Shown: positions 1-497 of the stretch, in pieces
Numbering within the stretch: position 1 is the stretch's first letter
Layout: every line of letters begins with the position of its first letter
Origin: Escherichia coli
GTDB taxonomy: Bacteria; Pseudomonadota; Gammaproteobacteria; Enterobacterales; Enterobacteriaceae
Strand: one strand, 5' to 3'
NCBI RefSeq assembly: GCF_003334335.1
Contig: NZ_QOWQ01000183.1
Length of the DNA: 497 nucleotides
Made by a program: the position numbers and the translations under genes
The notes under the pieces: model-generated
The model's input: the letters and a program-made list of their open reading frames with translations, nothing else
What the model was told of the DNA's origin: nothing
Databases searched by the model: none

Positions 1-497
1 TTGTGCTCTGCATGTCTCCCCGAACTGACATCTTTTTCCCCCTGCATCCAGATCACCGACAACAGCACGTTTTTCGGGTTTTTCTTCAGGGCTGCACGCG
101 TTCTGCTGACCAGGTCACGATACAACGGTTTATCCACCCCCCACAGGGAAGAGCCCGCTGTCGCACCCGACGCCTCATTAAACGCGCCCTCTGCTCCCGC
201 AGTAAATCCCGAATCGCCACGTCCACACGGGACAAGAAGGATCCCCGCACGGGCAGGCATAAACGGCAGCAGTTTTTTGGCCACATGCAGGGCATGCCCC
301 ACACAGCCATACTGCCCTTTATTGAGGTCTGCTTTCGGGTGATTCAGATTACTCACGTCCTGCACATCATGCAGACAATGGTCTGCAGGAATAATGTCGT
401 TATATGCACAGGCCGCACCGCCCGGTGTCACCGTGCTGCGACGCGCCAGTTGCTTAATACGCGGGTCAGGACGATCATACGTATCCGGCAGCGGCAG
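1..497 (-). CDS. Internal fragment (partial at both ends) of an SGNH-hydrolase family protein, sialate O-acetylesterase-like (SASA/DUF303 family; NanS / prophage NanS-p-like 9-O-acetyl-sialic acid esterase)
   Basis: Seen in sequence: the reverse-strand frame with codons at 497..495 down to 5..3 has 165 consecutive sense codons and no stop, while the other two minus-strand frames and the plus frames contain stops. Translation, N- to C-terminal: LPLPDTYDRPDPRIKQLARRSTVTPGGAACAYNDIIPADHCLHDVQDVSNLNHPKADLNKGQYGCVGHALHVAKKLLPFMPARAGILLVPCGRGDSGFTAGAEGAFNEASGATAGSSLWGVDKPLYRDLVSRTRAALKKNPKNVLLSVIWMQGEKDVSSGRHAEH. Established knowledge, from memory of the family consensus and not from a search: GILLVPCGRGDSGF (+ coords 204..245) resembles the SASA block II region (hydrophobic-L-I-P-C-A-x-G-G-T/S), and LLSVIWMQGEKD (+ coords 30..50 for WMQGEKD) resembles block III (W-x-Q-G-E-S-D/N). 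The preceding GHALHVAKKLL (+ 267..299) resembles the conserved g-x-s-F-A-k-x-l segment. Codon choice is rich in CTG, CCG, GCG and AAA, as in Enterobacteriaceae. Gene symbol left empty because I recognise the family, not the exact gene. Confidence 0.75.
   Translation of the reverse strand, partial: MPLPDTYDRPDPRIKQLARRSTVTPGGAACAYNDIIPADHCLHDVQDVSNLNHPKADLNKGQYGCVGHALHVAKKLLPFMPARAGILLVPCGRGDSGFTAGAEGAFNEASGATAGSSLWGVDKPLYRDLVSRTRAALKKNPKNVLLSVIWMQGEKDVSSGRHAEH

Follow-up and report, generated by a model that had tools for sequence, protein, structure and literature searches.

An open minus-strand frame of 165 codons in Escherichia coli very probably belongs to the interior of the known prophage gene nanS-p

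The stretch of E. coli DNA analyzed here (497 bases in full length, hereafter the window) is almost certainly an internal piece of the prophage gene nanS-p, which lies on the minus strand and encodes a sialate O-acetylesterase, an SGNH hydrolase of the SASA/CE6 type; the window falls in the middle of the catalytic domain. The gene is already known: it is annotated in RefSeq, and its homologues have been characterized both biochemically and structurally. The lines of evidence that were computed or directly observed are the frame itself, homology, domain architecture, conservation of motifs, purifying selection and genomic position. Both the start and the stop codon of the gene lie outside the window, so that the feature under study extends from end to end:

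1..497, minus strand: internal coding segment of nanS-p, residues 96-260 of 660, with bases 2..1 beginning codon 261

The original prediction was that a stop-free frame of 165 codons spans the entire window on the minus strand, and translation of the reverse complement bears this out: the frame starting at base 497 (codons 497..495 down to 5..3) contains 0 stops in 165 codons, and the two remaining minus-strand frames contain 5 and 11. The GC content, estimated at roughly 55%, was measured as 56.7%. The estimate that such openness would arise by chance about once in a few thousand cases has the right order of magnitude for a single pre-specified frame, with values from 3.6e-4 to 1.1e-3 depending on the model: (61/64)^165 gives 3.6e-4, the base composition gives 1.0e-3, and the frame stayed open in 138 of 200,000 mononucleotide shuffles (6.9e-4) and in 57 of 50,000 dinucleotide-preserving shuffles (1.1e-3). 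The probability of at least one open frame among the six arising by chance is far above that for the single pre-specified frame, namely 1.3% in mononucleotide and 6.6% in dinucleotide shuffles. The program-made listing of open reading frames contains the two entries described previously, a plus-strand ORF of 113 aa (1..342) and a minus-strand ORF of 74 aa (86..310), together with a third of 21 aa on the minus strand (353..418). By the description of the ORF tool, ORFs that run past either end of the window are left out, and the minus frame 497..3 is missing from the listing for precisely the reason that had been presumed.

There is, however, a second frame without stops, which the original prediction overlooked:

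3..497, plus strand: second stop-free frame of 165 codons, a shadow ORF in the exact antisense register of nanS-p

Because this frame contains 0 stops in 165 codons as well, stop counting alone cannot pick the coding strand, and the decision rests on homology and on the pattern of substitutions, not on the absence of stops. Thus, the earlier conclusion that the minus frame is the meaningful one stands on these two grounds, although the argument from openness by which it had been reached was incomplete.

Homology in the frame starting at base 497, which had been named as a check, was readily found. The 165-aa translation matches phrog_143 (E=1.5e-104) and the Pfam SASA family (PF03629; E=2.3e-7), and is 59% identical to crystallized NanS. 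For the full 660-aa protein the SASA profile match is partial and modest (E=2.2e-8, residues 157-276), whereas the SASA member NanS itself is matched far better: the alignment with PDB 3pt5, the E. coli NanS/YjhS 9-O-acetyl-N-acetylneuraminate esterase, covers residues 74-392 with E=1.1e-111. Moreover, residues 448-654 match 6yp6, the crystallized C-terminal domain of a NanS-p protein (E=6.7e-47), and the Pfam architecture of the whole protein consists of DUF1737 (3-50), SASA (157-276) and DUF6645 (509-617). The NanS-p family has been defined by three domains, including SASA and a lectin-like C-terminal domain (PMC10462455), and the Pfam domains of the 660-aa protein, taken with the match to 6yp6, reproduce this architecture. 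Every sequence-level feature that can be tested assigns the protein to the NanS-p family. In the NCBIfam scan no family was matched by the window translation, and the full protein yielded one irrelevant match (E=0.05); NCBIfam appears to lack a model for the NanS-p family. The Rfam scan of the window (E<=1) returned no match and thus no evidence for an RNA element.

The same assignment emerges from annotated genomes. Four complete E. coli chromosomes, those of JE86-ST05, JE86-ST02, UCPROB-001 and UCPROB-002, contain the window with 100% identity, and 16 further E. coli chromosomes among the matches listed contain it with 99.4-99.8%. The window is also 99.8% identical to the phages PhiR12_1, PhiR12_2, PhiR12_2_star, PhiR12_4 and PhiR12_5; these are described as inducible, and their records are complete phage genomes that name E. 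coli K-12 or C as the host. As had been anticipated, loci with 100% or 99.8% identity place the window within a minus-strand CDS in the same frame. In JE86-ST05 the window corresponds to NZ_AP022815.1 1208757-1209253, inside the CDS of WP_016238073.1 (660 aa); in the extracted locus (L001) the CDS occupies 6800..8782 on the minus strand and the window 8001..8497. The window starts 285 nt into the CDS, a multiple of 3 (285 mod 3 = 0), which makes the annotated CDS frame and the open minus frame one and the same.

The naming of the gene is inconsistent. RefSeq alleles 99.4-100% identical to the window are called either 'SASA family carbohydrate esterase' or 'DUF6645 domain-containing protein', and phage records use 'hypothetical protein', 'carbohydrate binding protein', 'mobile element protein' and 'yjhS: 9-O-acetyl-N-acetylneuraminic acid deacetylase' for what is essentially the same gene.

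With respect to the substitution pattern, the window was compared with two diverged alleles, those of PhiR5_1 (L003; 87.5% DNA identity to the window) and of Stx2 phage 1717, gp44 (L004; 76.6%). Read in the sense frame, 48 of the 62 differences from the former and 76 of the 123 from the latter fall on codon position 3, amino-acid identity amounts to 95.2% and 76.2%, and dN/dS to 0.064 and 0.170, respectively. The minus-strand nanS-p frame is under purifying selection.

That the plus frame 3..497 could be a genuine antisense overlapping gene, expressed instead of or besides nanS-p, is a reading with some apparent support. In the full locus L001 the frame forms an ORF of 319 aa (7781..8740, plus strand) within an open run of 328 codons, which is also present in L002 and L005, and its translation matches phrog_25251 (E=9e-25). 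The features of an overlapping gene, an ORF kept open in diverged homologues and purifying selection on its product, are nevertheless not seen. Each of L003, L004 and L006 carries 3 stops in the register-matched antisense frame within the window region; the longest open run of this frame in the diverged alleles is 147-150 codons, and over the whole gene it contains 16-17 stops in L003 and L004 vs 8 in the present allele. Its dN/dS is 1.84 with L003 and 1.21 with L004, and amino-acid identity drops to 70% and 52%, compared with 95% and 76% in the sense frame. A search of the 319-aa ORF against Pfam yielded no domain. The openness of the frame has a simple cause, which is that the sense gene lacks TTA, CTA and TCA in these 165 codons; when synonymous codons were resampled from the gene's own codon usage, the antisense frame was open in 17% of the trials. 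In all these respects, with no conservation and dN/dS above 1, the frame behaves as expected of shadow ORFs of coding genes and shows no difference from them. The PHROG match is explained by the record of an Stx1-converting phage, AP005153.1 (L006), which is over-annotated, with 201 features in 59.9 kb, and in which four ORFs, b71, b72, B76 and B77, are nested on both strands inside ORF B75, the nanS-p homologue. Two of them are of particular relevance:

AP005153.1 (L006) 1276..1617, plus strand: ORF b72, matching phrog_25251 over its full length (E=2.5e-77)
AP005153.1 (L006) 1649..2017, plus strand: ORF b71, matching phrog_25016 over its full length (E=2.1e-77)

Given that b71 and b72 match the profiles end to end, we conclude that phrog_25016 and phrog_25251 were built from such antisense calls. 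We consider the existence of an antisense gene exceedingly unlikely, and the candidate was rejected on account of the stops in homologues, the dN/dS above 1, the lack of a Pfam domain and the origin of the PHROG matches in b71/b72. Matches to PHROG families of 'unknown function' of the phrog_25251/phrog_25016 kind can falsely support wrong-strand ORFs.

The same reasoning extends to the ORFs that the listing does contain:

1..342, plus strand: 113-aa out-of-frame antisense ORF, not a gene; 150 aa in L001 (7890..8342)
86..310, minus strand: 74-aa chance ORF in the +1 frame relative to nanS-p, with 5 stops in its frame and dN/dS of 1.6-2.7

Both have their start and stop codons inside the window, and the 113-aa ORF matches phrog_25016 (E=1e-19), which is its sole database match, and has a low dN/dS in its frame (0.11-0.20, with amino-acid identity of 91% and 72%). 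Yet phrog_25016 corresponds to the nested ORF b71 of AP005153.1, and only positions 2-52 of the 114 in the profile are aligned, so that the boundaries of the ORFs differ. The low dN/dS is expected because the third positions of this frame coincide with the wobble positions of the sense frame. In an antisense frame that has its third positions in common with the sense frame, dN/dS cannot discriminate, and the movement of the stop was used instead: the ORF terminates at residue-equivalent 148 in L001, 222 in L003 and 260 in L004 and L006. As for the 74-aa ORF, it has no significant match among the PHROG families (E=0.16), in addition to the interruptions and the elevated dN/dS of its frame, and neither ORF is called in any RefSeq annotation of the identical locus. 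The probability that either is a real gene is practically nil; the original prediction had dismissed both as not meaningful, and they are indeed out-of-frame by-products of nanS-p.

A different concern is that the open frame could be the remnant of a decaying nanS-p pseudogene in a cryptic prophage, disrupted somewhere beyond the window. Disrupted homologues do exist, and intactness therefore needs to be checked locus by locus: the nanS-p copy of Stx2a_WGPS8 carries a pseudogene annotation, that of vB_EcoS_phi330 (L007, PV189401.1) is broken up into two CDSs (310..1821 and 1865..2245), and IS-interrupted nanS-p alleles have been reported (PMC10462455). Furthermore, the prophage of L001 has degraded neighbors, the YdfR and DUF551 pseudogenes. 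Against this, the CDS is a single intact frame of 660 aa in every examined locus that is 99.8-100% identical to the window, including L001, L002 and L005, as the original prediction required of the flanks; the sense frame is intact from end to end in all 5 of the alleles examined in full (L001-L005). The same allele is carried by PhiR12_1 to PhiR12_5, and in each of the 20 near-identical RefSeq matches listed the window lies under a CDS with a product name, either 'SASA family carbohydrate esterase' or 'DUF6645 domain-containing protein', none being marked as a pseudogene. We regard decay as very unlikely, the intactness of the gene having been established for identical and near-identical database loci.

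Of the active-site elements of nanS-p, only the QGE motif and the probable region of the block II glycine lie inside the window:

36..44, minus strand: QGE, Q247-G248-E249 (in WMQGE), the SASA block III '(H)QGE', aligned with WMQGE of NanS (3pt5)
204..227, minus strand: C186-GRGDSGF-193, aligned with CCRGGSAF of NanS

In block III the (H)QGE motif stands in place of the canonical GxND asparagine, and its described role is to position the glutamine of block I within the oxyanion hole (PMC9487903). The oxyanion-hole glycine of block II is probably located in the segment 186-193, the residue itself being suggested by the alignment; a glycine of the oxyanion hole is described for NanS (PMC9063846). 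The remaining elements lie beyond the window. Block I is represented by G85-Q86-S87-N88, aligned with the GQSN (Gln18/Ser19) of NanS and located 22-33 nt beyond position 497, and block V by His373 (RKTH-FSS), aligned with His301 of NanS (RSSH-FSS) and lying over 320 nt past position 1; like NanS, the protein lacks the aspartate of block V. In the literature on NanS, Gln18 is assigned to the oxyanion hole, and Ser19 is identified as the nucleophile and His301 as the catalytic base (PMC9063846, PMC9487903). With the nucleophilic serine and the catalytic histidine both outside it, the window alone cannot show activity.

The genomic setting is that of a lambdoid late region. In L001 the genes are arranged on one strand in the order Q, methyltransferase, tRNA-Ile, two tRNA-Arg, TerB-family, DUF3927, nanS-p, DUF1378, DUF826, holin, lysozyme and terminase, with Q at 11955..12638, nanS-p at 6800..8782 and the holin gene at 5860..6075, followed by the lysozyme, terminase and portal genes. 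The layout of PhiR12_1 matches that of L001, with nanS-p between Q and holin. The gene is thus found where NanS-p genes are located, downstream of the antiterminator Q and upstream of the holin S. L002 is otherwise near-identical to L001, with no gene annotated between nanS-p and the tRNAs in the corresponding interval. Of 5,426 complete E. coli genomes, 182 contain homologous DNA, on chromosomes only (0 on plasmids) and in up to 6 copies per genome, in agreement with the multiple nanS-p alleles reported per STEC strain.

Among known systems, the closest parallels are the NanS-p proteins of lambdoid phages, both Stx and non-Stx (933Wp42/z1466 of 933W, vb_24B_21/gp84 of phi24B and YjhS of BP-4795), which have the same combination of DUF1737, SASA and a lectin-like C-terminal domain, the same place between Q and holin and the same NanS-type variant of the SGNH blocks; gp44 of Stx2-phage 1717 shares 76% of its amino acids with the present protein within the window. 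Several differences are nevertheless apparent. Unlike the Stx phages, the prophage here lacks an stx operon; the interval from Q to nanS-p (L001 9277..12638) holds instead the genes for a DNA methyltransferase, tRNA-Ile, two tRNA-Arg, a TerB-family protein and DUF3927. The protein has 660 aa, compared with the 636-657 aa reported for Stx-phage NanS-p (PMC10462455), and the C-terminal domain is more diverged, aligning with the crystallized domain of the phi24B protein (6yp6; E=7e-47) with several gaps. The His block, at residues 370-373 of the L001 CDS, reads RKTH in this allele, whereas that of Stx2a-phage NanS-p and of NanS has been described as RSSH or RASH, with one outlier, RPTH (PMC10462455). 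Length, RKTH, the lack of stx and the diverged C-terminus are ordinary allelic variation in a family that has already been described as diverse (PMC10462455). Chromosomal NanS (YjhS, 3pt5) is more distant in its overall organization: its catalytic domain is homologous, with GQSN, QGE and the catalytic histidine conserved and the block V aspartate lacking in both proteins, but its chain of 337 aa aligns with residues 74-392 only and has no counterparts of DUF1737 and of the C-terminal lectin-like domain. Furthermore, NanS is encoded chromosomally and is not phage-borne (PMC8065619).

Taking substrate, catalytic mechanism, late-operon regulation and fitness benefit from the literature on the family, we propose the following model. 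The full protein comprises an N-terminal DUF1737 domain, an esterase with a NanS-like SGNH fold, a low-complexity linker and a C-terminal lectin-like jelly-roll (DUF6645). By analogy with NanS, Ser87 would act as the nucleophile and His373 as the base, the oxyanion hole being formed by Gln86 and a glycine, and the QGE at 247-249 is likely to hold Gln86 in place. We infer esterase activity for this allele because the catalytic residues are conserved. The enzyme is predicted to remove O-acetyl groups from 5-N-acetyl-9-O-acetylneuraminic acid and from O-acetylated mucin sialoglycans. NanS-p enzymes de-O-acetylate Neu5,9Ac2 and mucin O-glycans and enable lysogens to grow on Neu5,9Ac2 (PMC8065619, PMC10462455); every NanS-p allele tested from EDL933 and O104:H4 has been reported as an active Neu5,9Ac2 esterase that sustains growth (PMC8065619). 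As part of the late operon that Q controls in a lambdoid prophage, nanS-p would be expressed on induction, a regulation predicted from the position of the gene only; for Stx2a-phage alleles, induction of nanS-p together with the late genes has been reported from qPCR with mitomycin C (PMC10462455). The population of lysogens might thereby gain the use of acetylated sialic acids from gut mucus.

Such a metabolic benefit to the lysogen may be an incomplete account of the role of the protein, given that a 2026 preprint reports proteolytic processing of gp84, the phi24B homologue, and decoration of the capsid by its DUF1737 domain as a hexamer. A virion-associated role is also possible for a phage of the present type. 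That this non-Stx allele, with its RKTH His block and diverged lectin domain, differs from the characterized Stx-phage NanS-p enzymes in its substrate or in its role in virion decoration, or that the antisense frame is a young overlapping gene specific to this allele lineage, is in our estimate a highly improbable outcome.

The present analysis also bears on the reading of short windows located inside long coding sequences, where ORF tracks that drop run-off ORFs hide the real gene. Furthermore, an open frame is insufficient to name the coding strand, as the register-matched antisense frame can equal it, which is the case here. The biological weight of the identification is small, the gene being annotated and its homologues already characterized.
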